A program made the translations under genes and the position numbers. A DNA stretch of 64,000 nucleotides from assembly GCA_002399405.1 (NCBI GenBank), contig DHDP01000013.1, positions 150,784 to 214,783 of the forward strand. The letters are read 5' to 3'. Each line of letters starts with the position of its first letter. The stretch's first letter is position 1. Origin of the DNA: Treponema sp. UBA4873 (lineage in GTDB: Bacteria; Spirochaetota; Spirochaetia; Treponematales; Treponemataceae). Below, in pieces: positions 32,143 to 61,665 of this stretch. The notes beneath the pieces were generated by a model that made no database searches, was not told where the DNA came from, and saw nothing but the letters and a program-made list of their open reading frames with translations.

Positions 32143-33186
32143 TCAATAATGAAGGAATTTTTCGCCGGGCGTTCTGCTCAGTCTGCTCCTGTTCTGCGGA
32201 ACGGACCAGACGGCGTCGTAATCGATCTGATCCGCGAAGCGCGTATTAAAGTCGATGAAGTTCGAACCGTCTGTCAGTTTTTCCTTATGAGTGCCTGCTG
32301 ACGCAATATCTTTCAGATACGTGTTGTTTCTGAATGCGGGAATCACGTACAGGTCGCGCGCGTACTCCCACAGGTTTTTGTAGTCGACTACCCGGTGCTT
32401 GATGGGGCCGATATTCCTGTAATAGTGCGTGTCGAACCGGGCGAGCGTAACGAACAGGCGTACGTCGCTGTCGGTCACGTAATCGCCGAAGAGAAACCGT
32501 TTGTCCTCAAGACGTTTTTCGAGCAGATCGAGCGAATCGTAAAAATCATCGAACGCTTCGTTGTACGCGGTAACCGACTGTGCAAACATCATACGGTACG
32601 TAGCATTGTTCACATGCGGAAACAGCCAGTCGTTGAGTTCGTCGATATCTTTGCGCAGATGAACCGGGTAGATGTCGGGCGCATCAGGTTTCTGAAACGG
32701 CCTGAATGCCGCTTCCAGATAATTTGTAAGCCTGTTGTAGTCGTTGTTCACTACTTTTCCGGTCGTCACGTCGACAAGTGCGGGAACGGTGCAGCGGCCG
32801 GTATAGGAAGGATCGGTCCGGTTATACAATTCGCTGAGAAACTGAACGCCAAGCACCGGATCGCGGCGGTCTTTGTCGTAGACGCATTCCCAGCCGTACG
32901 CACTGTTTTCCGGGCTGCGGCCTACGAGATTTATGCTCACGGCATTCTCAAGACCGAGCAGTTCGCGCACAATCGAGGAACGGTTCGACCAGTGGCATCC
33001 TTTTGCCCAGAAGAGCCGGTAGCGGCCGCTTTCGGCTTTCAGATCTTCAGGTCCGTTCCCGAACGGTGTACGGAACCGGTTCGGCTGTCTCTGAAACGCA
33101 CCGCGTTCGTCGATTTCAACTTTTATTTCATTAGGCCGTTTCTTTAAATTTTCTTCCGGCGTTTTTACATCGCATCCGCAGCTCAT
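32143..33186 (-). CDS. Xi-class glutathione transferase / glutathionyl-hydroquinone reductase-like (YqjG/ECM4 family), paralog 1, most divergent
   Basis: Family architecture is kept (GRYRLFWAKGCHWSNR, TVPALVD, DVRLFVTLARFDTHYY). Active-site box reads CHWSNR instead of CPWAHR, and NNATYRMMFA replaces NNGVYKAGFA. N-terminus MSCGCD. Confidence 0.8.
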   Translation of the reverse strand: MSCGCDVKTPEENLKKRPNEIKVEIDERGAFQRQPNRFRTPFGNGPEDLKAESGRYRLFWAKGCHWSNRSSIVRELLGLENAVSINLVGRSPENSAYGWECVYDKDRRDPVLGVQFLSELYNRTDPSYTGRCTVPALVDVTTGKVVNNDYNRLTNYLEAAFRPFQKPDAPDIYPVHLRKDIDELNDWLFPHVNNATYRMMFAQSVTAYNEAFDDFYDSLDLLEKRLEDKRFLFGDYVTDSDVRLFVTLARFDTHYYRNIGPIKHRVVDYKNLWEYARDLYVIPAFRNNTYLKDIASAGTHKEKLTDGSNFIDFNTRFADQIDYDAVWSVPQNRSRLSRTPGEKFLHY

Positions 33187-33205
33187 TCAGTACCTCCGTG
33201 CTTTT

Positions 33206-34195
33206 TCATTGTTCAATACGGAATTTTTGTTCCGGGTGACTGCTCAGCCGTGAACGTTCCTCAGCCGGCAGATTCCAGACCGACGCGTCGGGACCTTTCG
33301 GGACAATTCTGAACGGATTGCCGGTAACGGCGCACAGGTGATAATGCTTTTTGATCGCTTCAAAATCAGTCGTATCGCCGAATCCATGTGTCTGGTACAG
33401 ATCGCGCGCATATCCCCAGAGATTCCGGTAATCGCGGATTCTGTTCCTGTTTACCTTGAATCCGTTGTAATACGCAGCGTCGAACCGGGCGAGCGTAACG
33501 TACAGGCGCACGTCGGATTCGGTAATAAAATCGCCGAAAAGGAAACGTTTTGTTCCCAGTTCTTTTTCCAGGCTGTCGAGCCGGGCAAATACGGTGTCGT
33601 ATGCTTTTTCATACGCTCCCTGACTGCGGGCAAATCCCGCTTTATAGACGCCGTTGTTCACTTCGTGAAACAGTATATCGTTGAGCGAATCGATGTCGCC
33701 GCGCAGCTGCTCAGGATAGAGATCGGGAGCATCCGCGCGGTGAAACGGCTTCCATGCGGTCTCCCACCAGCGTGTCAGATTGAAGTAATCGTTGTTGACC
33801 GCTTTTCCAGTCTTCAGGTCGACGACGACCGGAACGGTAAAACGCCCCGTATACTCCGGGTCTGCTTTCAGATAGACGTCGCTGATGTACGCAACGTGAA
33901 GCACCGGATCGAGTCCGTCCCTGTCGAGCGTGAAAGCCCAGTCGCTTTCGGGTTTGTCCGGCCGTACCGGATCAGCCGTACCGAGACTGATTACTTTGTC
34001 GAGTCCGAGCAGACTGCGTACAATGACCGAACGGTGCGCCCACGGGCAGACAGGCGCCCAGAGCAGCCTGTACCGTCCGGCCTCAACGGGCAGCTCGCCC
34101 GGTCCGCTTCCGAACGGAGTTGTAAATTCGTTATACTGCCGGTGGAATTCTCCGCCGTTCTGAATCTCGCCGCCTATCCATTCTTTTACTGACAT
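33206..34195 (-). CDS. Xi-class GST / glutathionyl-hydroquinone reductase-like, paralog 2 (canonical CPWAHR)
   Basis: GRYRLLWAPVCPWAHRSVIV, VNNGVYKAGFARSQ, DVRLYVTLARFDAAYY. Confidence 0.88.
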   Translation of the reverse strand: MSVKEWIGGEIQNGGEFHRQYNEFTTPFGSGPGELPVEAGRYRLLWAPVCPWAHRSVIVRSLLGLDKVISLGTADPVRPDKPESDWAFTLDRDGLDPVLHVAYISDVYLKADPEYTGRFTVPVVVDLKTGKAVNNDYFNLTRWWETAWKPFHRADAPDLYPEQLRGDIDSLNDILFHEVNNGVYKAGFARSQGAYEKAYDTVFARLDSLEKELGTKRFLFGDFITESDVRLYVTLARFDAAYYNGFKVNRNRIRDYRNLWGYARDLYQTHGFGDTTDFEAIKKHYHLCAVTGNPFRIVPKGPDASVWNLPAEERSRLSSHPEQKFRIEQ

Positions 34196-34225
34196 ACATG
34201 TCCTTCCTTATTCGTGCGGAGGGTT

Positions 34226-35269
34226 TTATACCCCGACACGGAATTTCTGTTCCCGATGACTGCTCAACCGTAAACGTTCCTCCGCCGGCACATTCCATCC
34301 GCTTGTGTCGGGGCCTTTCGCGACAAGTCCGTACACGTTGCCCTCCAGCGCACGCAGGTGCGGCGACGTCTGGTAATGAATCTTGTACTTGTCGAAACAG
34401 GTCGTCTCCCTGAATTCCGGAATCTGATACAGGTCGCGGGCATATCCCCATAAATTGTGGTAGTCGGCGATTCTGTTCCGGTTCGCACGGAAGACAGTGT
34501 TGTAGACAACGTCGAACCGCGCGAGCGTCGGATAGAGCCTGACGTCGCTGTCGGTGACGAAGTCGCCGAACAGAAAACGGTCCGAAGAGAGCCGTTTTTC
34601 GAGATAATCGAGCGCCTGAAACAGCCTGTCGTATGCAGCTTCGTACGCCGCCTGAGTGCGCGCAAAGCCGACATCGTAGACGCCGTTGTTCACGCGTTTG
34701 AAAATGAACAAGTCAAGTTCGTCTATGTCGGAACGGAGATCCTGCGGATACAGATCCGGCGCATTTTTTTTGTGAAACGGTTTCCACTCTGTGTCGAGCT
34801 GCTGGGGAATCCGGAAATGATCGTTCGTCACGCCCAGTCCCGTCTTCGTGTCGACGATAATCGGCACCGTTGGACGCTCGTTAAAATCGCTTTTCGTGCG
34901 CGTGTATATTTCTTTCAGATAGTGTATGCCGAGCACAGGATCTTTTCCGCCGGGATCGTCGGAAAACACCCAGCCTTCTCTGTCGCGCATGAGACCTGCA
35001 GCCCCCAGACTGATGACGCTGTCGAGCCCGAGCAGGTTCCGCGTAATGACGACTTTGTGCGCGTGCGGGCACGCCGGCATCCAGACGAGGTGGTACCGCC
35101 CCGCTTCCACGGGCCATTCGCCCGGGCCGCTGCCGAATCTGCCTTTAAACAGATTATCCTGAATCTGCATACTTCCGTCGCTGTTCATCTGATGACGGAA
35201 CGTGTCCTCAAAAAGCTGTGCGCCGGAGCTTTCGTCCGGTCGTGAAACAGTGCAGCATTCGTTGCTCAT
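34226..35269 (-). CDS. Xi-class GST / glutathionyl-hydroquinone reductase-like, paralog 3
   Basis: GRYHLVWMPACPHAHKVVIT, VNNGVYDVGFARTQ, DVRLYPTLARFDVVY. N-terminus MSNECC. Confidence 0.85.
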   Translation of the reverse strand: MSNECCTVSRPDESSGAQLFEDTFRHQMNSDGSMQIQDNLFKGRFGSGPGEWPVEAGRYHLVWMPACPHAHKVVITRNLLGLDSVISLGAAGLMRDREGWVFSDDPGGKDPVLGIHYLKEIYTRTKSDFNERPTVPIIVDTKTGLGVTNDHFRIPQQLDTEWKPFHKKNAPDLYPQDLRSDIDELDLFIFKRVNNGVYDVGFARTQAAYEAAYDRLFQALDYLEKRLSSDRFLFGDFVTDSDVRLYPTLARFDVVYNTVFRANRNRIADYHNLWGYARDLYQIPEFRETTCFDKYKIHYQTSPHLRALEGNVYGLVAKGPDTSGWNVPAEERLRLSSHREQKFRVGV

Positions 35270-35278
35270 CGCCGCGCC

Positions 35279-36271
35279 TCACTGCTGTTCCGCACGGAAT
35301 TTGTGCTCAGGGTCGCGGCTCAGTTTTGCCCGTCCGTGCGGTTCGTTCCATATGGAAACGTCGGGACCTTTCGCAAGGATTCCGTACGGGTTCTGACTCT
35401 GCGAACCGAGCTGATAGCCGCGTTTTATCGAATCGAAATCGGTATTCACGCCGAATCCCGGCGTCTGGTACAAATCTTTCGCATATCCCCAGAGATTCGG
35501 AAAGTCTATGAGTCTGTTGCGGTTGACGCGGAAAACGATATAGTACGCCGCATCGAAACGCGCAAGCGTCACGTAGAGACGTATATCCGAATCGGTGACG
35601 TAGTCGCCGAACAGAAAGCGCCGCGCCGACAGCCGTTCTTCAAGCTGATCGAGCCGGGCAAAAAGCGCGTCGTATGCTTTTTCGTATTCCTGCTGCGTTT
35701 CAGCGAATCCCGCTTTGTATACGCCGTTGTTCACGTCGTTGAAAATAACGTCGTTGAGCGAATCGATGTCGCCGTGCAGCTCTTCGGGATACAGGTCGGG
35801 CGCCCCTTTTTTATGGAACGGCTTCCACGCAGTCTCCCAGTAGTTGGTGAGTTTGAAGTAATCGTTGTTGACGACTCTGCGCGTTTTAACGTCGACGACA
35901 GTCGGCACCGTCGCCCTGCCGTCGTATTCGGGATCGGTTTCCGCGTAGATTTCCGGCAGATACCGTATCTTCAACACGGGGTCCACGCCGTCCGGGTCGA
36001 GCGAGAATTCCCATCCCTGCGGCGTGCGTACCGGATTAACTTTTCCGGTGCTGATGACGCTGTCGAGTCCGAGCAGACTGAATGCGATTGTCTGCCTGTT
36101 TGCCCACGGACAGATTGCCGCCCAGATGAGCCGGTAACGGCCCGCCTCGACGGGCAGCTCGCCCGGTCCGCTTCCGAACGGAGTCGTGAACCTGTTCTTC
36201 TGACGCTGAAATGCGCCTGTCGGCGTTATCTCATGTGCACTTTCCGAAGTTGCTACTTTACCTTCTGCCAT
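35279..36271 (-). CDS. Xi-class GST / glutathionyl-hydroquinone reductase-like, paralog 4
   Basis: GRYRLIWAAICPWANRQTIA, VNNGVYKAGFAETQ, DIRLYVTLARFDAAYY. ATG at 36271 with GGAGG upstream. Confidence 0.87.
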   Translation of the reverse strand: MAEGKVATSESAHEITPTGAFQRQKNRFTTPFGSGPGELPVEAGRYRLIWAAICPWANRQTIAFSLLGLDSVISTGKVNPVRTPQGWEFSLDPDGVDPVLKIRYLPEIYAETDPEYDGRATVPTVVDVKTRRVVNNDYFKLTNYWETAWKPFHKKGAPDLYPEELHGDIDSLNDVIFNDVNNGVYKAGFAETQQEYEKAYDALFARLDQLEERLSARRFLFGDYVTDSDIRLYVTLARFDAAYYIVFRVNRNRLIDFPNLWGYAKDLYQTPGFGVNTDFDSIKRGYQLGSQSQNPYGILAKGPDVSIWNEPHGRAKLSRDPEHKFRAEQQ

Positions 36272-39182: not shown

Positions 39183-39207
39183 AGAAAGCCTCCCTAAAAT
39201 ACCTATT

Positions 39208-39272
39208 ACCTATTTGTTTAGTAGGTTTTTATATAGTGAGGATATACTACTAAACCGGTAGGTAATTGTCAA
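39208..39272 (-). promoter_or_regulatory. promoter with two ACCTA-N9-TAGGT-type palindromes upstream of the SBP gene
   Basis: The minus strand reads TTGACA (39272-39267), 17 nt spacer, TAGTAT. Site 1 (39245-39263, one mismatch) lies in the spacer and site 2 (39208-39226, perfect) lies downstream. Confidence 0.55.
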
Positions 39273-45181: not shown

Positions 45182-46138
45182 CTACTCGGCGAACAGTCCC
45201 GTGCTCAGATAACGCAGCCCCGTGTCGGGCAGAATCACCGCAATCGATTTCCCCTTGAATTCGGGACGCTCAGCAATCTGCGTTGCAGCCCAGAGCGCAG
45301 CCCCTGAAGAAACGCCGACGAGTATTCCGTCCGACTTTGCAACTTCACGAGCGGCTTTAAAGGCGTCAGCCGCACGAACGGTAATCGCTTCGTCGTAAAT
45401 CGTCTTGTCGAGATTCGGCGGAACGCGGGAAGGATCGACGTCTGAAAAACGGTGGACGCCCGTTATGTCGTTTTCCTCAAGTACCGGTTCGACCGCAGCG
45501 ATGTAGATTTTTTTGTTTTTTCCTCTCAGATATTTTCCCGTGCCGCTCAGCGTTCCGCCCGTTCCGACGCTGGCGACGAACACGTCCACGTCTCCGCCCG
45601 TATCGCGCCAGATTTCCTCTCCGGTTGTCTCATAATGACTCGCAGGATTTGCAGGATTCGCGAGCTGATTGACGTTTAAGTCGCCGCTCTGCGCCAAGAG
45701 GTCGAACAGAAGAAAACCGGCCGCCATGAAATCACCGCCCGTTTCGTCGAGCTTCTGTTTTACTTCGGGAACTTCGCTCATATTCACAAGCTCCGCTCCG
45801 TACGCTTTTATTACCTGCTTGCGTTCTTCGCTCACGAAGTCCTGAATATACGTTTTAAAATGATACCCTTTGGAAGCGGCCAGCGCCGCAAGCGCAATTC
45901 CCGTGTTTCCGCTCGTCACTTCGACGAACGAACCGCCCGGCTTCAAACTTCCGTTTTTTTCAGCATCCTCTATCATGCCTTTAGCAATACGGTCCTTTAC
46001 GCTGTTCGTCGGGTTAAAATATTCAAGCTTTCCCAGAATCGACGCGCTCAGATTGTGCCGCTTTTCATAGTTAACAAGCTCCAGAAGCGGCGTGTTCCCT
46101 ACCAGTTCACTGATTGACTTGTGAATGTTTTTACTCAT
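45182..46138 (-). CDS. cysK: cysteine synthase A (O-acetylserine sulfhydrylase)
   Basis: GNTPLLEL, PLP-lysine context FNPTNSVKDRIA, TSGNTGIALA, GTGGTLSG. Confidence 0.9.
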   Translation of the reverse strand: MSKNIHKSISELVGNTPLLELVNYEKRHNLSASILGKLEYFNPTNSVKDRIAKGMIEDAEKNGSLKPGGSFVEVTSGNTGIALAALAASKGYHFKTYIQDFVSEERKQVIKAYGAELVNMSEVPEVKQKLDETGGDFMAAGFLLFDLLAQSGDLNVNQLANPANPASHYETTGEEIWRDTGGDVDVFVASVGTGGTLSGTGKYLRGKNKKIYIAAVEPVLEENDITGVHRFSDVDPSRVPPNLDKTIYDEAITVRAADAFKAAREVAKSDGILVGVSSGAALWAATQIAERPEFKGKSIAVILPDTGLRYLSTGLFAE

Positions 46139-46370
46139 AGTTTATCTCCCATTAAAAATAAGACTCAAAAAAAAGTCCCGACACCGCTTCCAATTGCAGT
46201 ATCAGGACCTCCGGTTATCCAGTCAGTTCCCCGGGAAACGCTTCCCGTACAGTTACGCAGAACACGCTGAGTAAATCCTCATGACTTAATCAGCGGTCCC
46301 TTGTACTCCTTATTTACCTACTTTTATAATAGGTTTTTAGTATATTATAATTGTTTCACCCATTTGTCAA
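46139..46370 (-). promoter_or_regulatory. promoter plus structured 5' leader with intrinsic terminator (leader copy A) upstream of cysK; unclassified riboswitch/attenuator candidate
   Basis: TTGACA (46370-46365), 17 nt spacer, TAATAT (46347-46342). ACCTA-N9-TAGGT at 46316-46334. The conserved core is GGAACTGACTGGATAACCGGAGGTCC (reverse complement of 46205-46230). A 13-bp stem (46175-46187 with 46196-46208) is followed by U8 (46167-46174), about 30 nt before the ATG. Confidence 0.7.
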
Positions 46371-46417
46371 GTATTTTAGTAGGCAATAAAGGGAATGTTT
46401 CACAAATTCAAACTTAT

Positions 46418-47569
46418 TTAATCGGCTTCATTCAGATACTCGAAAACGTAGTTAATGAGAAATTCAACTCCGTATTTCAGAACGCCTTCGTCGACTATCG
46501 TTTTGTTCGTATGGCCGACTGTATATTTCTCATTGACCGCAGCACCCACATGAATGAACGTTCCCGGTATAAATTTCTGATAAAGCGCAAAGTCCTCTCC
46601 GCCCATGAACGGTCTCCCCCATTTTACAGCTTTGCTGCCGTAAAGACGCTGTATGACTTTTACAGCCCTGTCGGTGCAGGTTTTGTCATTATTCACGGAA
46701 ACACCCGGCCCCCAGAAATCCGCGGCAACATCGGCACCTGCAGTCTCCGCTATATTTGCCGCGATTTCCCGTACCGATTTATTAAAAATGTACACATTTG
46801 ATTCCTGAAGCGTTCTGAAATTATACGATATATCGACAGATACAGGTTTGCCGTTTTCCTGATGAGTAGCTACGACAGTCGGGACGGTAACAACCTGCTC
46901 GTTCTGCGGATACCCGTATGCGGCAAGAGCGCTCACGTTGTTTATTATCTGCGACGCGGTAATTATGAGATTGGAAGTAAGGCTGTCGCGTTTTTTCAGA
47001 TGGATTTCGATGTTCGCGCCTATTGAACTCGCAATTCCGTATCCTACTTCGAATACGCCGAGATCGAGCGTCGTTGCATTATGAAGTCCTATGATAGTGT
47101 CAACATCATTCAGTCCGCCGGCTGCAACGATTTTTTTCGCTCCGGCGCCGATCTCTTCGCCTTCCTGAAAAAATATCTTTACGGTTCCGTGAATCTGCTC
47201 TTTCAGTTCATTGAGCAGCTTTGCAGTTCCAAGCATAAAAGTGATATGAGAGTCATGGCCGCAGGCATGCATAACGCCCTCGTTCTTCGACGAAAACGGA
47301 ACACCAGTTTCTTCTTCGACAGGCAGCGCATCAATGTCACCGCGCAGCGCTATTGTCTTTCCGGTTTTACTTCCTTTTATCGTTGCTATGATGCTCGTTG
47401 CGGGAATTTTTTCATAGCTTATGCCGAGCCTGTCGAGTTCGCCTGCAATATATTCGCAGGTTTTAAATTCCTGACTTCCAAGTTCGGGATATTCATGAAA
47501 ATGCTCGTAATTTTTTCTCAGATAGGTATCATTATCTTCGACAAGTTTTCTTATTTCTTCCTGTGACAT
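46418..47569 (-). CDS. M20D-family amidohydrolase (N-acyl-amino acid deacylase / YxeP-like)
   Basis: 383 aa with HEYPELGSQE, ALRGDIDALP, HACGHD, and C-terminal GGEDFALY..FIHVGA. Confidence 0.8.
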   Translation of the reverse strand: MSQEEIRKLVEDNDTYLRKNYEHFHEYPELGSQEFKTCEYIAGELDRLGISYEKIPATSIIATIKGSKTGKTIALRGDIDALPVEEETGVPFSSKNEGVMHACGHDSHITFMLGTAKLLNELKEQIHGTVKIFFQEGEEIGAGAKKIVAAGGLNDVDTIIGLHNATTLDLGVFEVGYGIASSIGANIEIHLKKRDSLTSNLIITASQIINNVSALAAYGYPQNEQVVTVPTVVATHQENGKPVSVDISYNFRTLQESNVYIFNKSVREIAANIAETAGADVAADFWGPGVSVNNDKTCTDRAVKVIQRLYGSKAVKWGRPFMGGEDFALYQKFIPGTFIHVGAAVNEKYTVGHTNKTIVDEGVLKYGVEFLINYVFEYLNEAD

Positions 47570-47584
47570 TTCCGACGCTCCCTG

Positions 47585-47947
47585 TTATTCACCGAACGCT
47601 ATATCGACAGTGCCTGCATTTACGGATGCGATTTTTTCCGCCGTGTCGGTTACTATTTTTCTTGTTTTTTCTATTTCGTCTTTCGTTTCGAAGACACCCT
47701 CGTATGTTATATCCGCCGTATCGGGAATAATATTCGATTTCTGCCCCGCATTGAATTCAACAGGTTCGAATCTGAAATTGTCGAAACTGTCGAATTCATA
47801 CGCAAGTCTTGCTGTTATGATATTTATTATTTCCGCAGCAGTGACTATAGGATCATGACATTTAAATGGAACGGAACTGTGTCCGCCTTTTCCGTTTACT
47901 GTAATTTTTGCAGAAAGTAAATTTGCTGCCATAACAGGCCTCCACAT
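47585..47947 (-). pseudogene. stand-alone fragment corresponding to the lid/dimerisation domain of an M20D amidohydrolase
   Basis: 120 aa. ITVNGKGGHSSVP..DPIVTAAEIINIIT..NAGQKSNIIPDTADITYEG matches the middle third of M20D enzymes. The N-terminal metal-binding half and the C-terminal part are absent. The ORF is squeezed between the ABC ATPase stop (47960) and the full-length M20D start (47569). Confidence 0.55.
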
Positions 47948-47959
47948 ATACTCAATTTA

Positions 47960-48718
47960 TTATATTGCATATTCCGGCGGAATCCTTACGTTATTTTTCG
48001 CGAGAAATTCCTTTGTACGGAGATTTTGCGGAGCGTTGAAAATCTGCTCCGGTGTTCCGCTTTCGACGATTCTGCCTTTTTCGAGAAAAATCACCTTTGT
48101 CGCTACGTTGTATACGAACGACATTTCGTGCGAAACGAGAATCATCGTATTGCCGTTCTCTGCTATTTTTCTGATTGTCTGAAGCACTTCCTCCACCAGT
48201 TCAGGGTCGAGCGCGGAAGTAGGTTCGTCGAACAGAAGCAGTTCCGGTTCCATAGCAAGCGCGCGTGCAATGGCAACCCGCTGCTGTTGTCCGCCCGACA
48301 AATGCTGCGGATAATAATCGCTCCTGTCGGAAAGGCCCACGAGCGACAATTCTTTTTCGGCGATCTTTTCAGCCTCTTCTCTACTCTTTTTCTTAACAAC
48401 AATAAGCCCTTCCATAACATTTTCAAGCGCTGTCTTTTTCTTAAAGAGATTAAACTGCTGAAACACCATGCCGATCCGCTTCCGCAGCTCTATTATGTCT
48501 TTCTTCGCATGCAGCACATAATCGAATTGAAAATCGTCCAATGAAATAGCTCCTCGTTCCGGTTTCTCAAGAAGGTCTATGCATCTCAAAAACGTCGACT
48601 TACCCGTTCCCGACGGACCTATAATTGCAACAACATCGCCCTTGCCGATTGAAACGCTCACTCCGTCAAGCACGGTGTTTCCGTTGAAAGATTTGTAAAT
48701 ATCTTTTATCTCAATCAT
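47960..48718 (-). CDS. polar amino acid ABC transporter ATP-binding protein (paralog of 36810-37574)
   Basis: GPSGTGKST, LSGGQQQRVAIARAL, LLFDEPTSALDPE. Confidence 0.88.
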   Translation of the reverse strand: MIEIKDIYKSFNGNTVLDGVSVSIGKGDVVAIIGPSGTGKSTFLRCIDLLEKPERGAISLDDFQFDYVLHAKKDIIELRKRIGMVFQQFNLFKKKTALENVMEGLIVVKKKSREEAEKIAEKELSLVGLSDRSDYYPQHLSGGQQQRVAIARALAMEPELLLFDEPTSALDPELVEEVLQTIRKIAENGNTMILVSHEMSFVYNVATKVIFLEKGRIVESGTPEQIFNAPQNLRTKEFLAKNNVRIPPEYAI

Positions 48719-48721
48719 ATG

Positions 48722-49477
48722 TTATTGTCCCCTGCATTCGGCAACGGCTACTTTTGCGGAATCGTTTTTTCCGACAACATCAGGCACTTTCACTGCTTTA
48801 CTGATAAGACGGATAATCTGTTCAAGCACAATAACAAGCGCCCAATAAATTACCGCGAGCGCAACGTATGCCTCAAAGTAGCGGTAATCGCGCCCTGCTA
48901 GAATTTTTCCCGCGGCCGTCATCTCTATGACAGAACAGCTGAACGCAAGCGACGTACCTTTTATTAATCCTATAAGCGTGTTGCCGAGCGGCTGAATCGC
49001 AAGCTCCACGGCCTCCGGAATGACGATTCTCCTGAGGGACTGCCACCCCGTCATACCGATTGCCTGCGCTGCTTCCACCTGTCCCTTGTCGACTGCTTCG
49101 AGCGCCGAGCTTATGACAACGGAGTTATATGCGGCCTGATTGAGCGCAAGCGCGGCTATCGCGTAAATAATCGGCGGAATGGCCGCTACGTTGTAATCTG
49201 TTCCGTTCCAGTAATTAAGGTACTGAAGAAAAATCGGTATGCCGAAATACGAAACGTACAGCTGCACAATAATCGGCGTTCCCCGTATCACCGAGATGAA
49301 AACGATCGACAGCTGATTCAGCACTTTGATTTTTTTTATGCGGATAACCGCGATAACGAAACCGAGCAGCAGGCCCAGCACCATCGACCATAATGTCAAA
49401 TATAACGTAACGGGAAGATATTTCAACATTGCGGCAATATCAGTGCCGACAACCTTTATATCGAACAGATTCAGCAT
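48722..49477 (-). CDS. polar amino acid ABC transporter permease (paralog of 37571-38314)
   Basis: 251 aa. VDKGQVEAAQAIGMTGWQSLRRIVIPEA. Confidence 0.85.
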   Translation of the reverse strand: MLNLFDIKVVGTDIAAMLKYLPVTLYLTLWSMVLGLLLGFVIAVIRIKKIKVLNQLSIVFISVIRGTPIIVQLYVSYFGIPIFLQYLNYWNGTDYNVAAIPPIIYAIAALALNQAAYNSVVISSALEAVDKGQVEAAQAIGMTGWQSLRRIVIPEAVELAIQPLGNTLIGLIKGTSLAFSCSVIEMTAAGKILAGRDYRYFEAYVALAVIYWALVIVLEQIIRLISKAVKVPDVVGKNDSAKVAVAECRGQ

Positions 49478-49489
49478 AGCGGCCTCTGT

Positions 49490-50386
49490 TTATTTACCGT
49501 CGGTAATTTCGTGCGCTTTTTCCACATCCGCGAGCGCAGGGGCAATGTTTTTCCCTTCGAAATATTTTCCGCTGATAGTTCCGATTGTTCCGTCCGCAAG
49601 CGCTTCTCGGTATGCCTTGTTCATGTCAGCAGCAAGCTGAGGATTTTTTTTCGAAACTATGAAAAAATTTCCGAGCGTAAGCAGCGGGCCGCCGACTGCT
49701 CCGAGTTCCTCCTTCGTTACATCAATAAATTGAAGTCCCTTTATTCCCGCATTCTTAACCTGGCTCTTCATAGAAACTGTCGTAAAGAAATAAAAATCTA
49801 TCTTGCCGGCCGACACGTCGACCGGATACGTATTAACGTTGTCGACGTATATCAGTTTCACCGGATTTTCGGGATGCTGTTTATTATACGTCTCGAACAA
49901 ATTGGCGTTATACGAAGACGAATCGACTTCAGTTGTATGGCCGCCGATGTCCTTAAACGATTTGATTTCGCTGTTTCCCTGTTTAACAAGAAGCGCGTGC
50001 GGATCAAAAGCATATTCATCCGTAAAGATGTATTTTTCGCCGCGCGATTTATTGTAGCCGAAATGATTGCATCCGACCTGATATAATCCCGCATCGATGC
50101 CGGTGAATATCGAAGGAAATTCAGTTATCTGAATGCTGAATTCGTACCGGGGAAGGCGACTGAAAATTTCCGTGAGCACTTCTATATCATACCCGGTTAA
50201 TTTTCCGCTGTTATCCACCGTTACGAACGGAGCAGGACCTCCGCTCGTTGCCGCGACAATCCTCTGTTTTTGAACGGAAGAACCGTCGTTCTTTTTTTTG
50301 CTCTTCGAAAATCCGCCGAAGACAACAGTCGTCATCATGAATACAGCCGCCAGAACACGCACTGCGGAATTATTTATTTTTTTCAT
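49490..50386 (-). CDS. amino acid ABC transporter substrate-binding protein (family 3 SBP)
   Basis: 298 aa with a signal peptide and the type-3 SBP pattern. First gene after leader copy B. Confidence 0.8.
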   Translation of the reverse strand: MKKINNSAVRVLAAVFMMTTVVFGGFSKSKKKNDGSSVQKQRIVAATSGGPAPFVTVDNSGKLTGYDIEVLTEIFSRLPRYEFSIQITEFPSIFTGIDAGLYQVGCNHFGYNKSRGEKYIFTDEYAFDPHALLVKQGNSEIKSFKDIGGHTTEVDSSSYNANLFETYNKQHPENPVKLIYVDNVNTYPVDVSAGKIDFYFFTTVSMKSQVKNAGIKGLQFIDVTKEELGAVGGPLLTLGNFFIVSKKNPQLAADMNKAYREALADGTIGTISGKYFEGKNIAPALADVEKAHEITDGK

Positions 50387-50627
50387 ATTGATGCCTCCTT
50401 GAATATGAAAATGAAGTGAAAATAAAAAAAAGGTTCCGACACCGCTTTTTAAATTGCGGTATCGGAACCTCCGGTTATCCAGTCAGTTCCTCGGGAAACA
50501 CATCCCGTAATACTACCCGGGACTGCTGAGTAAATCCTGCCGGTTCAATCAGCCGTCCCGTGTTCCTTATTTACCTAGTTTTACAATAGGTTTTGAGCAT
50601 AATATAATCGATTCAGCTGTTTGTCAA
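50387..50627 (-). promoter_or_regulatory. promoter plus structured 5' leader with intrinsic terminator (leader copy B)
   Basis: TTGACA (50627-50622), 17 nt spacer, TATTAT (50604-50599). ACCTA-N9-TAGGT at 50573-50591. The core (reverse complement of 50464-50490) is identical to copy A except for the last bases. A 14-bp stem (50432-50445 with 50456-50469) is followed by U8 (50424-50431). Confidence 0.7.
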
Positions 50628-50675
50628 GTATTTTAGTGGGATTTGGAGAATTATACGAAAATAATATTATTATTT

Positions 50676-51926
50676 TCAAAGGAAAACGCGGAACGTAGTG
50701 CCCTGGCCCGGAACACTCTCCGCCCTGATGCTGCCGCCGTGTGCTTTGACGAGCGCATATGCGATAGTAAGGCCGATGCCTGAACCGCCTGTCGCGCGCG
50801 CCCGGGATTTATCAGTCCGGTAAAACCGCTCGAAAATATGCGGCAGCTCTCCGGGGGCTATTCCGATTCCCGTGTCGGAAATGTCCGTTTCCTTTCCGTC
50901 GGAACGGATCGTGATGCCGCCGCTGTCCGTGTATTTCACCGCGTTCGACAGGATGTTTACAAAGACCTGCCTGATGCGGTCGTAATCCGCGTACACTGTT
51001 TCTGAATGAAGATCAAGTTTGATGGAGATGCCTTTTTTGAACGCAGCGCCCCGGAATTGTTCAGCCGTTGCTTCCAGAAGGTCAGCCAGGTCGAACTCCG
51101 TCTTGTGCAGCGTAATATGCTCCCATTCAATGTCGGTCAGAAGCGAAAGGTCCGTCACCAGTTTCGACAGCCGCTGTATTTCCTCGCTGCAGCCGGCAAG
51201 CCTGTCGGGGGTCGGTTCCCAGATGCCGTCGGTGAGCGCCTCCATACTCCCCTGAAGACAGGCAAGAGGAGTGCGCAGCTCGTGGGCAACGTCGGTCGTA
51301 AGCTGCCGCTGTTTTTTGTCCGCCTCGTTCAGAACAAGCGACGCCAGCGCGACGGCGATGACGATGCTGACTGCCGTAAAAACGGCAAGCGAAAGGAAAA
51401 AAAGCCTGTTCAGTGAAAAAAGAAACACGGATTCGCCTTTGCTGTAAAACAGTGGACCGAACGTCTCGATTGTGATGAAACCGACAGCTCTGCCCGCGTA
51501 CGACAGGGGATACTCCAGAATCTGAGGCGTACCGCCGGCTTTACCTAGTTTATTCATCCTGCTGCGTATCTCGTTCAAAACCCGGTTGCATTCCGCCATA
51601 TCGCACACGCGGGCGTCCCAGACAATACGTCCCTCTGTATCCCTCACTGTGACTATGTACCCTTCATGCGTAAAATGCATGCCGAGCGCCTCGACCGTCC
51701 TCACGTCGAAGCGTTCGGACAGCGGATCGTACAGTTCCGAGATTGAACGAAGAATTTCCTGCTGTTTTTCTGCAATGGCTTCGGATACGAGACCGGAGAA
51801 CAGCGACTGCGTAAAACGGTTTATACCGGCAGTCAGTACAATCAGCGCAAGACTGATGCAGAACGCATAGATAAGAATGAGACGCTGTTTGAGCGTCGGC
51901 CTGAAAAGTGCAGATATACGTTTCAC
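50676..51926 (-). CDS. sensor histidine kinase (two TM segments, HisKA, HATPase_c)
   Basis: H-box TTDVAHELRTPL, N-box ILSNAVKYT, G-boxes DTGIGI and GGSGIGL. Confidence 0.88.
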   Translation of the reverse strand: MKRISALFRPTLKQRLILIYAFCISLALIVLTAGINRFTQSLFSGLVSEAIAEKQQEILRSISELYDPLSERFDVRTVEALGMHFTHEGYIVTVRDTEGRIVWDARVCDMAECNRVLNEIRSRMNKLGKAGGTPQILEYPLSYAGRAVGFITIETFGPLFYSKGESVFLFSLNRLFFLSLAVFTAVSIVIAVALASLVLNEADKKQRQLTTDVAHELRTPLACLQGSMEALTDGIWEPTPDRLAGCSEEIQRLSKLVTDLSLLTDIEWEHITLHKTEFDLADLLEATAEQFRGAAFKKGISIKLDLHSETVYADYDRIRQVFVNILSNAVKYTDSGGITIRSDGKETDISDTGIGIAPGELPHIFERFYRTDKSRARATGGSGIGLTIAYALVKAHGGSIRAESVPGQGTTFRVFL

Positions 51927-60156: not shown

Positions 60157-60350
60157 ATATTTTCATCCGCCTCCTGATCGATCTCACCGCCGCATATGCC
60201 GCACAAATAAAAAAGGTTCCGGCACTGGTATATTTCTATCTCAGTGCCGGAACCTCCGGTTGTCCAGTCAGTTCCTTTCTAAAAATTATAAACTATTACC
60301 TACTATTCCAATATGTTTTTGATAATAATGCGGGTGCCGGTATTTGTCAA
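60157..60350 (-). promoter_or_regulatory. promoter plus short 5' leader with intrinsic terminator (leader copy C, minimal version)
   Basis: TTGACA (60350-60345), 17 nt spacer, TATTAT (60327-60322). Degenerate palindrome at 60298-60316. The core is GGAACTGACTGGACAACCGGAGGTTCC (reverse complement of 60249-60275). A 13-bp stem (60215-60227 with 60242-60254) is followed by U6 (60209-60214). Confidence 0.7.
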
Positions 60351-60366
60351 GTATGCGGCGGCATGT

Positions 60367-61614: not shown

Positions 61615-61633
61615 TCCTATTTACTCGATAGGT
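61615..61633. promoter_or_regulatory. TCCTA-N9-TAGGTAA palindrome just downstream of a candidate promoter for the trans-sulfuration gene
   Basis: CTGACA, 17 nt spacer, TACATT, followed immediately by TCCTATTTACTCGATAGGTAA. Same motif family as at leaders A, B, C and 39.2 kb. Confidence 0.5.
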
Positions 61634-61665
61634 AATTTATATTATTATCAGCTTCAGGAGCTGTT

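Follow-up and report, generated by a model that had tools for sequence, protein, structure and literature searches.

The functional heart of a set of related leaders in a Treponema genome is a shared 27-nt core hairpin, rather than the longer module that is specific to two of them (leaders A and B). Together with the intrinsic terminator that it overlaps, this core forms a functional, covarying and widely conserved cis-regulatory RNA unit. We propose that the core hairpin acts as a factor-stabilised antiterminator, an ON switch for a sulfur-starvation regulon, with the small protein DUF2292 as its probable binder and two further hairpins of leaders A and B, M1 and M2, as add-ons; we put the probability of this reading at roughly 0.6. 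Directly established are the structures and their covariation, the overlap with the terminator, the kinds of gene around the hairpins and the tendency of hairpin and DUF2292 to occur together.

Four copies of a core hairpin in one genome

We analysed a stretch of 64,000 nt (the window), in which all leader features lie on the minus strand (Table 1). Leader B is flanked by a histidine-kinase gene and by the gene for an SBP_bac_3 binding protein, the first of operon B, whose product has weak NCBIfam similarity to a cystine-binding protein. In BLAST, leader B matched leader A with 80% identity over query positions 1–176 (about 177 nt; E = 3.9e-39) and leader C with 79% identity over query positions 110–175 only (about 66 nt). 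This bears out the sequence-only reading of the region, which had A and B sharing a longer stretch than C, and the strings quoted in that reading are all present. From the −35 box to the ATG, A and B are about 76% identical (186 of 246 alignment columns), and a three-way alignment shows the promoter and the palindrome to be common to A, B and C. Because A and B are paralogues, their likeness is by descent, and two sequences alone permit no statistical covariation.

Across the 4.0-Mb genome, a covariance model of the core (R1) found exactly four hairpins, namely A, B, C and a fourth, D, past the end of the window. The scores were 43 bits for C, 40.9 bits for B (E = 4e-11), 38.2 bits for D and 34.0 bits for A, which has one A–C mismatch in its P1 helix. 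The upper terminator stem GAUACYGC/GCGGUGUC is common to A, B and D and absent from C; given this distribution, the unit of M2, core and terminator was probably duplicated inside this genome.

Table 1. Coordinates of leader elements, operons and palindrome copies (positions count from the first letter of the window).
Feature	Position	Strand	Remarks
Copy A leader	46139–46400	−	Paralogue of B
Leader A parts	46167–46370	−	Upstream of cysK-like gene 45182–46138
Leader A promoter	46342–46370	−	
Leader A palindrome	46314–46333	−	
Leader A M1	46259–46300	−	
Leader A M2	46232–46247	−	
Leader A core	46204–46230	−	
Leader A terminator and U-run	46167–46209	−	
Copy B leader	50387–50650	−	Paralogue of A
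Leader B promoter-like site	50599–50627	−	TTGACA, 17-nt spacer, TATTAT
Leader B palindrome	50571–50590	−	CCTA-N9-TAGGTAA, just past predicted transcription start
Leader B M1 stem-loop	50519–50559	−	GGGACGGCUGA ... AGGAUUUAC UCAGCAGUCCC
Leader B M2 hairpin	50492–50507	−	CGGGA/UCCCG; ends one base 5′ of core
Leader B core hairpin	50464–50490	−	27 nt, putative antiterminator
Leader B intrinsic terminator	50424–50469	−	14-bp stem, then U8
AGGATTTACTCAGC, copy in A	46266–46279	−	
AGGATTTACTCAGC, copy in B	50525–50538	−	
Histidine-kinase gene	50676–51926		Flanks leader B
SBP_bac_3 binding-protein gene	49490–50386		Flanks leader B
Operon B	47960–50386	−	SBP_bac_3 binding protein, permease, ABC ATPase (Pfam)
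Two M20 amidohydrolase ORFs	46418–47947		After operon B genes (Pfam)
Copy C	60157–60360	−	Core present; M1 and M2 absent
Leader C parts	60209–60350	−	Upstream of Fe-ADH, aminotransferase and nitrogenase-like D/K genes
Leader C promoter	60322–60350	−	
Leader C palindrome	60296–60315	−	One mismatch
Leader C core	60249–60275	−	
Leader C terminator and U-run	60209–60254	−	
Copy D	17 kb past window end		After nifH-like and DUF2292 genes, before ABC ATPase
Palindrome copy	39206–39225	−	Ahead of lipoprotein-like gene
Palindrome copy	61616–61635	+	Ahead of Cys/Met PLP enzyme gene

The core hairpin is conserved and covaries

In leader B, the core comprises a helix P1, GGAAC(U)/(G)GUUCC, an internal loop of GA facing A, a helix P2, CUGG/CCGG, and the terminal loop AUAA. 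All four copies have the features of the wider family, that is, P1, the invariant GA/A loop, a 4-bp P2 (CNNG/CNNG) and an A-rich loop of 4–5 nt. A scan of one genome per species found the exact 21-nt core at 22 loci in unrelated lineages, of which 21 were judged genuine and one (L023) is an apparent coding coincidence; the hosts are Lachnospiraceae, other Bacillota, Selenomonas, Methylococcales and a metagenome-assembled genome labelled Bacteroides. The core hairpin as such is spread over Bacillota, Negativicutes, Spirochaetes, Proteobacteria, Nitrospira and others. It was recovered by a fuzzy search on sequence in 53 of 80 loci that encode DUF2292 (see below), where the P2 variants CUAG/CUAG, CCAG/CUGG and CUGG/CCAG all keep their pairs.

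Among 67 distinct core sequences, pairing was observed in 91.5% of cells and fell to 20–50% in slid controls. Double-change cells numbered 105, compared with 26.7 in shuffles, and none of 500 shuffles equalled the observed count. Because the R1 rows, that is, the 67 sequences, had been chosen by a regular expression that demands P2 pairing, we also counted matches to a relaxed pattern in which only the GA, the outer P2 C–G pairs and the 3′ A are fixed and no pairing is demanded, which offsets this bias only partly. With the relaxed pattern, 105 distinct sequences were matched close to DUF2292 stop codons. At the pair that closes the internal loop, 45 of them have U–G, 34 have C–G, 20 have U–A and 5 are unpaired; this position was paired in 100/105 matches, and the two inner P2 pairs in 91/105 and 100/105. 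The unpaired residues that are invariant in the covariation counts are the GA on the 5′ side and the single A on the 3′ side. Pseudomonas loci have a variant hairpin downstream of the DUF2292-type gene, with C-GA and not U-GA on its 5′ side, and no terminator was seen with it in the loci read.

No relevant family of Rfam 15 matched the window at the gathering score, nor 15.8 kb of sequence and the 191-nt leader at E ≤ 10; in these scans, the covariance models of SAM-I to SAM-VI, SAM/SAH, T-box and HMP-PP riboswitches gave no match, and microRNA-like noise on the terminator stem was the only return. Likewise, no relevant family was found in a Lacrimispora locus, or in eight related loci at E ≤ 1. 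A T-box-like reading, in which UGGA (UGGN) would pair with tRNA-Cys or an NCCA end, was rejected because the UGG lies in P2, which covaries (CUAG and CCAG variants). Our search of the literature on DUF2292/YezD, OscA, antiterminators and sulfur riboswitches found no published description of the core hairpin, and a 2025 review of RNA-binding antiterminators makes no mention of sulfur, cysteine, OscA, YezD or DUF2292.

Hairpin and terminator are mutually exclusive folds

Core hairpin and terminator share a strand in the predicted folds of all four copies, the 3′ half of the former doubling as the 5′ arm of the latter; in leader B, this arm has GGUUCC in common with P1. The minimum-energy folds of A and B contain a terminator of 14–15 bp, and in leader B the terminator is valued at −25.8 kcal/mol compared with −12.0 kcal/mol for the core hairpin. 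Transcripts of the four copies that end before the 3′ arm of the terminator have the core hairpin as their predicted fold (−8.5 to −14.4 kcal/mol), and those of full length have the terminator (−21 to −28 kcal/mol). Given that the terminator is the preferred fold of the full transcript, the default state would be OFF and the hairpin would need to be stabilised. A consensus terminator scan found the terminator of A and missed that of B, the loop of which is 10 nt long against a scan maximum of 8.

The same arrangement holds well beyond this genome. A stable hairpin followed by a U-run starts inside the motif, at an offset of 8–22, in 76 of 85 unique instances, so that the core hairpin and the terminator exclude each other. 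The nine exceptions are six Methylococcales loci, in which the hairpin stands about 20 nt before the start codon, and three cases that were missed by the script. In several loci of Proteobacteria and Nitrospira, we read the 3′ strand of P1 as able to pair with the downstream Shine–Dalgarno region, which would be the same switch logic at the level of translation.

The terminators themselves also vary in a compensated manner. As the sequence-only reading had proposed, the differences between A and B preserve pairing: C–G in A is replaced on both sides by U–A in B at one position of the stem, and at two others A has U–G and B has C–G. The stem is likewise compensated among all four paralogues.

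The hairpin co-occurs with DUF2292 in a sulfur-linked gene context

The genes downstream of the hairpins encode cysK-like and O-acetylhomoserine sulfhydrylase-like enzymes and binding proteins of the NMT1 and SBP_bac_3 types, as well as M20 amidohydrolases, NifB-like and nitrogenase-like D/K proteins and a porin (Pfam and NCBIfam assignments). Upstream of many exact-core loci is an ORF of about 55 amino acids that belongs to Pfam family DUF2292 (PF10055). The Treponema genome has a single DUF2292 gene (E = 7.1e-17), directly upstream of hairpin D, in the order nifH, DUF2292, hairpin D, ABC operon.

Starting from the protein gave the converse result. Within the first 80 DUF2292 loci, R1 matched 60 at E ≤ 1.5e-5, and 71 of 72 matches at E ≤ 1 were on the strand of the DUF2292 gene. 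A second set of 80 loci, from Pseudomonas, Methylococcales, Nitrospira, Latescibacterota and others, gave 55 matches at E ≤ 1, every one of them downstream of DUF2292 on the same strand. The UGA of the internal loop lies between −4 and +83 nt from the DUF2292 stop codon in 57/80 loci: it is itself the stop codon in 16/80, the stop codon falls within 10 nt of it in 11 more, and in 30 loci the stop codon is 11–100 nt upstream.

We also compared the presence of motif and gene genome by genome, and report counts and not p-values because kin are not independent. For the 21 genuine exact-core loci, DUF2292 adjoins the hairpin at eight and is encoded elsewhere in the genome in 10/10 of the others tested, with three left out. 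Among 151 genomes of the same family, the motif was found in the Treponema genome itself (G000) and in G036, plus one weak coding-type match, and strong PF10055 matches in the same two genomes, plus two weak ones. A sample of 151 genomes from the class of a Methylobacter genome contained four with both motif and gene (two of these, G548 and G650, being unpublished genomes, on which this count partly rests), one with the motif only, which is a coding false positive, and one with the gene only, which has variant hairpins. Five genomes were found in which DUF2292 has no adjoining motif; in four of them it stands at another place in the genome, in front of genes for cysK-like or sulfhydrylase-like enzymes or for binding proteins, and the fifth, G662, showed no motif. 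This near one-to-one co-occurrence, which includes operons that lack DUF2292 (A, B and C), favours DUF2292 as the candidate partner of the hairpin, and would also be expected if DUF2292 were a mere signature gene of a riboswitch regulon.

The DUF2292 protein of one locus (L013) matches the NCBIfam model 'sulfur starvation response protein OscA' (NF033785) at E = 1.9e-9, below the cut-off of the model; the protein of the Treponema genome has no match to NF033785 at 1e-5. According to the accessible parts of two papers, oscA and sbp are transcribed as one unit, and chromate or sulfur stress induces oscA, a small gene, its function called unknown, whose inactivation causes Cr(VI) sensitivity (PMC2996968, PMC3596284, citing Viti et al. 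2009). In its AlphaFold model (pLDDT 75.7), DUF2292 consists of one helix and a β-hairpin. Foldseek returned no structural neighbour at E ≤ 0.001, the best rows being weak ones to MazE/AbrB, and there is no PDB relative by sequence; with so plain a fold and neither kind of neighbour, nothing marks DUF2292 as RNA-binding. It has no obvious ligand-sensing residues and is not rich in Cys or Met.

A palindrome at the promoter as a candidate operator

The promoter-like site of leader B matches the consensus at 11 of 12 positions and is conserved in A and C. Exact copies of the palindrome CCTA-N9-TAGGTAA occur seven times in the genome, five of these in the sulfur island. At two of the island copies (last rows of Table 1), no core hairpin was seen in the adjoining stretches that were read. 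Eight other genomes of the family match leader B by BLAST at the palindrome region only, often overlapping TTGACA, and palindrome-like sites recur at promoters without the A/B module both in this genome and in other Treponema genomes. The palindrome is probably, judging from this recurrence, a DNA operator for a transcription factor of the sulfur regulon. DUF2292 as the palindrome-binding protein was considered and rejected, as none of five palindrome-bearing Treponema genomes tested encodes it.

The module specific to leaders A and B

Between the palindrome and the core, leaders A and B carry M1 and M2, and the minimum-energy folds of both leaders consist of a 5′ palindrome hairpin, M1, M2 and the terminator. 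M1 reads GGGACNGCUGA ... UCAGCNGUYCY, and its inner stem joins a variable 5′ segment to the invariant GGAUUUA. Two local stems that had been proposed from the letters alone are found in both folds: the GCUGA/UCAGC stem, which is extended by GGGAC/GUYCY, and the CGGGA/UCCCG hairpin, with loops that differ between A and B. The string AGGATTTACTCAGC occurs twice in the window, in A and B only; shuffles lead one to expect 0.29 occurrences, and 4 of 100 shuffles reach two.

The changes within M1 are mixed. Three in the inner 5′ strand all still pair with the unchanged 3′ strand; one pair is C–G in A and a G–A mismatch in B, and a bulged U is additional in A. The earlier claim that changes in the helices maintain structure stands for most A/B differences, which are in loops or wobble-compatible, but not for the M1 pair that is broken in B. 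A pseudoknot or long-range helix had also been suggested between the invariant stretch and the upstream GGUAAAU: the complementarity AUUUAC/GUAAAU is present (6 bp and one G–U), but the helix is weak, and in the folds of A and B the GGUAAAU/AGGAUUUAC helix competes with the inner stem of M1. Moreover, GGTAAAT belongs to the palindrome, which is conserved at promoters without the module, so that an operator would account for its conservation without RNA pairing; the DNA operator appears to be the better explanation.

No homologue of the module was found in 200 genomes of the same family searched by BLAST with the whole of leader B, in which all matches were to the palindrome, the core or chance coding sequence, or in 337 genomes of the same genus searched with the module alone. 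The latter search gave matches of 18–50 nt in 12 genomes (E = 0.013–0.046), and the four inspected were one orthologous coding gene. In metagenome contigs, the exact A/B-type core had 0 matches, and the module pattern had 13, none followed by a core, which were judged unrelated and mostly coding. In sequencing run X6, a relative appears to have a variant form of the leader. Since no homologues were found, the support for M1 comes down to two paralogues with wobble-type changes and one disrupted pair. Three other identities for the module were rejected: M1 is not a degenerate second core (R1 finds nothing there with filters off), the module is not a decayed DUF2292 gene (tblastn matches were scattered, at E ≥ 0.02 in a tiny database), and it is not a leader peptide (the mini-ORFs differ between A and B and are without a Shine–Dalgarno sequence).

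M2 has more in its favour. Copy D has an analogous hairpin of the CGGAAA/UUUCCG type directly 5′ of P1, with a G–C to A–U change, and in the predicted folds of A, B and D, M2 or its analogue abuts the core helix. In Selenomonas leaders, a small GC hairpin precedes the core by 4 nt, and where two species differ in it, the change is compensated. Three paralogues of one genome thus lend some support to M2, which appears better supported than M1, and a role as a folding or stacking helper for the core hairpin is plausible from the modelled structures.

These results also qualify two broader statements made from the sequence. That the leaders are a functional RNA and no mere duplicated spacer is right for the core and terminator, which covary and are widely conserved, but carries little weight for the module. 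The idea that the module gives A and B a second input lacking in C found no support, as neither genome set nor the metagenome scan yielded a homologue. Confined to this genome in our searches, the module should not be treated as a conserved sensor.

Alternative readings

The core could instead be a very small riboswitch aptamer, the GA/A loop of which binds a sulfur-starvation metabolite (for example, O-acetylserine), with DUF2292 merely the commonest regulated gene. This would account for unpaired nucleotides that are invariant across phyla while the helices covary, and for hairpins wired to terminators in Bacillota and Spirochaetes or, by reading, to Shine–Dalgarno-sequestering helices in some Proteobacteria and Nitrospira; a tiny terminator-embedded aptamer also has a precedent in the HMP-PP riboswitch, as described in the accessible part of PMC6478431. 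However, a selective pocket would be hard to fit into a plain 27-nt hairpin with a 2 × 1 internal loop, and a regulated gene does not usually keep so closely to its control element as DUF2292 does to the hairpin, near one-to-one even across operons. The order of regulator gene and then terminator, too, resembles protein systems such as hutP (PMC12591593, accessible part). We consider an aptamer rather unlikely, but the main and a serious rival to a protein factor. Far less probable still is ribosome-mediated attenuation, in which a ribosome that translates an upstream ORF as far as a stop codon within the hairpin would select the antiterminator or the terminator. The coincidence of loop UGA and stop codon in 16 of 80 DUF2292 loci, and their proximity in 11 more, would fit such a mechanism, but leaders A, B and C are each transcribed from a promoter of their own and lack a conserved ORF upstream (as noted for the mini-ORFs of A and B), the stop codon is 11–100 nt upstream of the UGA in 30 loci, DUF2292 has no abundance of Cys or Met, and the invariant GA/A loop would be left unexplained.

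For the module, two readings differ from that of add-ons to a factor-stabilised core. In one, M1, M2 and the GGUAAAU/AUUUAC helix form a second sensory domain, which would provide A and B with an input that C lacks; in the other, M1 and the linkers are neutral sequence that was copied when the leader was duplicated, the hairpins are incidental or do no more than shield the 5′ end, and regulation is left entirely to the operator and the core/terminator unit. Folding of M1 and M2 in both copies, the mostly loop-located or wobble-compatible differences and the M2 counterpart with a compensated pair in D are what a sensory domain would predict. Against it are the failure of the family, genus and metagenome searches and of Rfam to return any match, the lack of a core-like element in M1, its broken pair in B and bulge in A, and a long-range helix that competes with the M1 inner stem and whose 5′ partner lies in an operator conserved without the module; we regard a second sensor as improbable. 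Neutrality of M1 and the linkers deserves more weight, though we still think it unlikely: the module is confined to two paralogues of one genome, M1 is absent from C, D and all instances inspected elsewhere, and at about 76% overall identity a 14-nt identical run is unremarkable, but the folds have z-scores of −6.3 (B) and −6.1 (A), both with the terminator included, and all three changes in the M1 inner 5′ strand keep pairing.

A model for the switch

In the antitermination model that we prefer, control would be exerted in two layers. At the DNA level, a σ70-like promoter would be followed by the palindromic operator CCTA-N9-TAGGTAA at about +2 to +21. At the RNA level, the unaided terminator would win (about −26 versus −12 kcal/mol) and transcription would stop before the transporter genes, unless a trans-acting factor recognised the invariant GA/A loop; the stabilised hairpin would then block the terminator and turn the operon ON under sulfur limitation. 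The likeliest factor would be the small YezD/OscA-like protein DUF2292. As add-ons, M2, which abuts P1, would probably help folding or stacking, and M1 has no assignable role. That regulation is in the ON direction, which factor is at work and what M1 and M2 might contribute are inferences from these data. DUF2292 itself may be no sensor: it might be made only when the operator-controlled promoter fires and then license other operons in a feed-forward manner.

A more general model can be offered tentatively, at a little under even odds. DUF2292/YezD/OscA would be a hitherto unrecognised family of small RNA-binding regulators that recognise GA/A-loop hairpins and thereby form a sulfur-starvation ON switch, through antitermination in Bacillota, Negativicutes and Spirochaetes and through release of the ribosome-binding site in Proteobacteria, Nitrospira and others. 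In the Treponema genome studied here, the hairpin would have been copied to four operons, with A and B adding a repressor operator and two extra hairpins to give a multi-layer gate. If the reading of the core is true, a compact RNA switch controls sulfur scavenging across many phyla, in a regulon that includes nitrogenase-like C–S reductase operons, cysteine synthase and sulfonate- or cystine-type transporters, and a molecular role would be assigned to DUF2292/OscA, a widespread small protein linked to sulfur starvation and chromate sensitivity.

Comparison with known systems

RNA attenuators of sulfur-metabolism genes are familiar in Bacillota as S-box (SAM) leaders and Cys/Met T-box leaders (PMC2566862, accessible part). 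These are much larger aptamers with known ligands, whereas the core hairpin has only 27 nt and no Rfam match to either. Closer in size is the HMP-PP riboswitch (thiS motif): its conserved element is likewise very small and is joined to an intrinsic terminator, and binding of the ligand suppresses termination (PMC6478431, accessible part). There, the aptamer is embedded in the stem of the terminator and recognises a thiamin precursor, whereas the hairpin described here is an alternative to the terminator. With regard to the protein, a named relative is OscA of Pseudomonas, a small protein homologous to DUF2292 (the match having been made with the L013 protein), the gene of which is followed by the variant hairpin.

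Among protein-dependent systems, RAT hairpins, which are bound by the CAT-domain proteins BglG, SacY and LicT, are short, have internal loops, overlap the 5′ arm of the terminator with their 3′ part and are stabilised by protein for antitermination. The core hairpin follows the same logic of hairpin and terminator overlap, but has no sequence likeness to RAT and serves a sulfur regulon and not a sugar regulon, and nothing in these data points to a CAT/PRD protein. In the hutP system of Bacillus subtilis, as set out in the accessible part of PMC12591593, the regulator gene comes first and a terminator precedes the structural genes; its product, a 148-amino-acid protein that forms a hexamer and is activated by histidine and Mg2+, binds NAG repeats in the RNA, destabilises the terminator and so causes read-through. 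Unlike in that system, the RNA here is a discrete GA/A-loop hairpin that would have to be stabilised, and the protein has about 50–60 amino acids and another predicted fold. The likeness to HutP lies in gene order, with DUF2292 followed by the hairpin and terminator and then by the structural genes.

A cysteine tRNA gene beside the hairpin

DUF2292 (PF10055) is the small protein that we proposed as a binder of the 27-nt hairpin. At every one of the eight loci checked, a tRNA-Cys(GCA) gene lies directly 3′ of the DUF2292 gene, and at six of them the hairpin and its terminator sit between the two (see table). On this gene order, sulfur-starvation control would appear to extend to a cysteine tRNA. 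The hairpin can also overlap the DUF2292 reading frame: across the 80 DUF2292 loci, its invariant UGA is the DUF2292 stop codon in 16, and a UAG inside P2 serves as the stop in two Bacillaceae loci. With the stop codon inside the hairpin, terminating ribosomes would therefore unwind it.

A candidate operator at sulfur promoters

The palindrome CCTA-N9-TAGGTAA is found at, or just 3′ of, the promoters of sulfur-related operons, and similar sites in other Treponema genomes overlap TTGACA boxes. We regard it as probably the operator of a regulator other than DUF2292. The DUF2292 gene is absent from all five palindrome-bearing genomes tested. In three loci from other Treponema genomes (L036, L037 and L039), ORFs of around 25 amino acids lie downstream of promoters bearing the palindrome, those of L037 and L039 ending in runs of cysteine codons; these ORFs may encode leader peptides that sense cysteine, or else small proteins rich in that residue.

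In a relative that is around 90% identical, a contig from sequencing run X6 joins window position 46336, within the sequence of RNA leader A, to 50620, upstream of its paralogue leader B, skipping 4283 bp and carrying 26 other letters in between. Either the two leader repeats have recombined, or the junction arose during assembly, at the repeat. Elsewhere in the window, the short ORF whose sole domain is the M20 dimerisation domain may represent a fragment of a gene.

Coordinates of the palindrome, tRNA-Cys genes and other features
Feature	Location	Strand	Remark
Palindrome	window 39206-39225	-	
Palindrome	window 46314-46333	-	
Palindrome	window 50571-50590	-	
Palindrome	window 60296-60315	-	one mismatch
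Palindrome	window 61616-61635	+	
Palindrome	G000:C10:233363-233382		own genome
tRNA-Cys(GCA)	L053 1674-1745		
tRNA-Cys(GCA)	L059 1679-1753		
tRNA-Cys(GCA)	L061 1688-1758		
tRNA-Cys(GCA)	L068 1687-1757		
tRNA-Cys(GCA)	L086 1692-1763		
tRNA-Cys(GCA)	L098 1695-1764		
tRNA-Cys(GCA)	L102 1692-1763		
tRNA-Cys(GCA)	L111 1607-1677		
120-aa ORF, M20 dimerisation domain only	window 47585-47947	-	between ABC ATPase gene and full-length M20 amidohydrolase gene
Three to four tandem paralogous units	window 32302-36217		~1040 bp each, 60-76% identical; repeat families D1-D4, D7, D9

A variant hairpin in Pseudomonas

Pseudomonas and its relatives (loci L212-L288) carry a variant hairpin, C-GA CUGG ACCA CCGG A-G with a GC-rich P1, located 20-60 nt 3′ of an oscA-like gene and followed by an sbp-like gene; in many of the non-Pseudomonas loci, the hairpins form a tandem pair.
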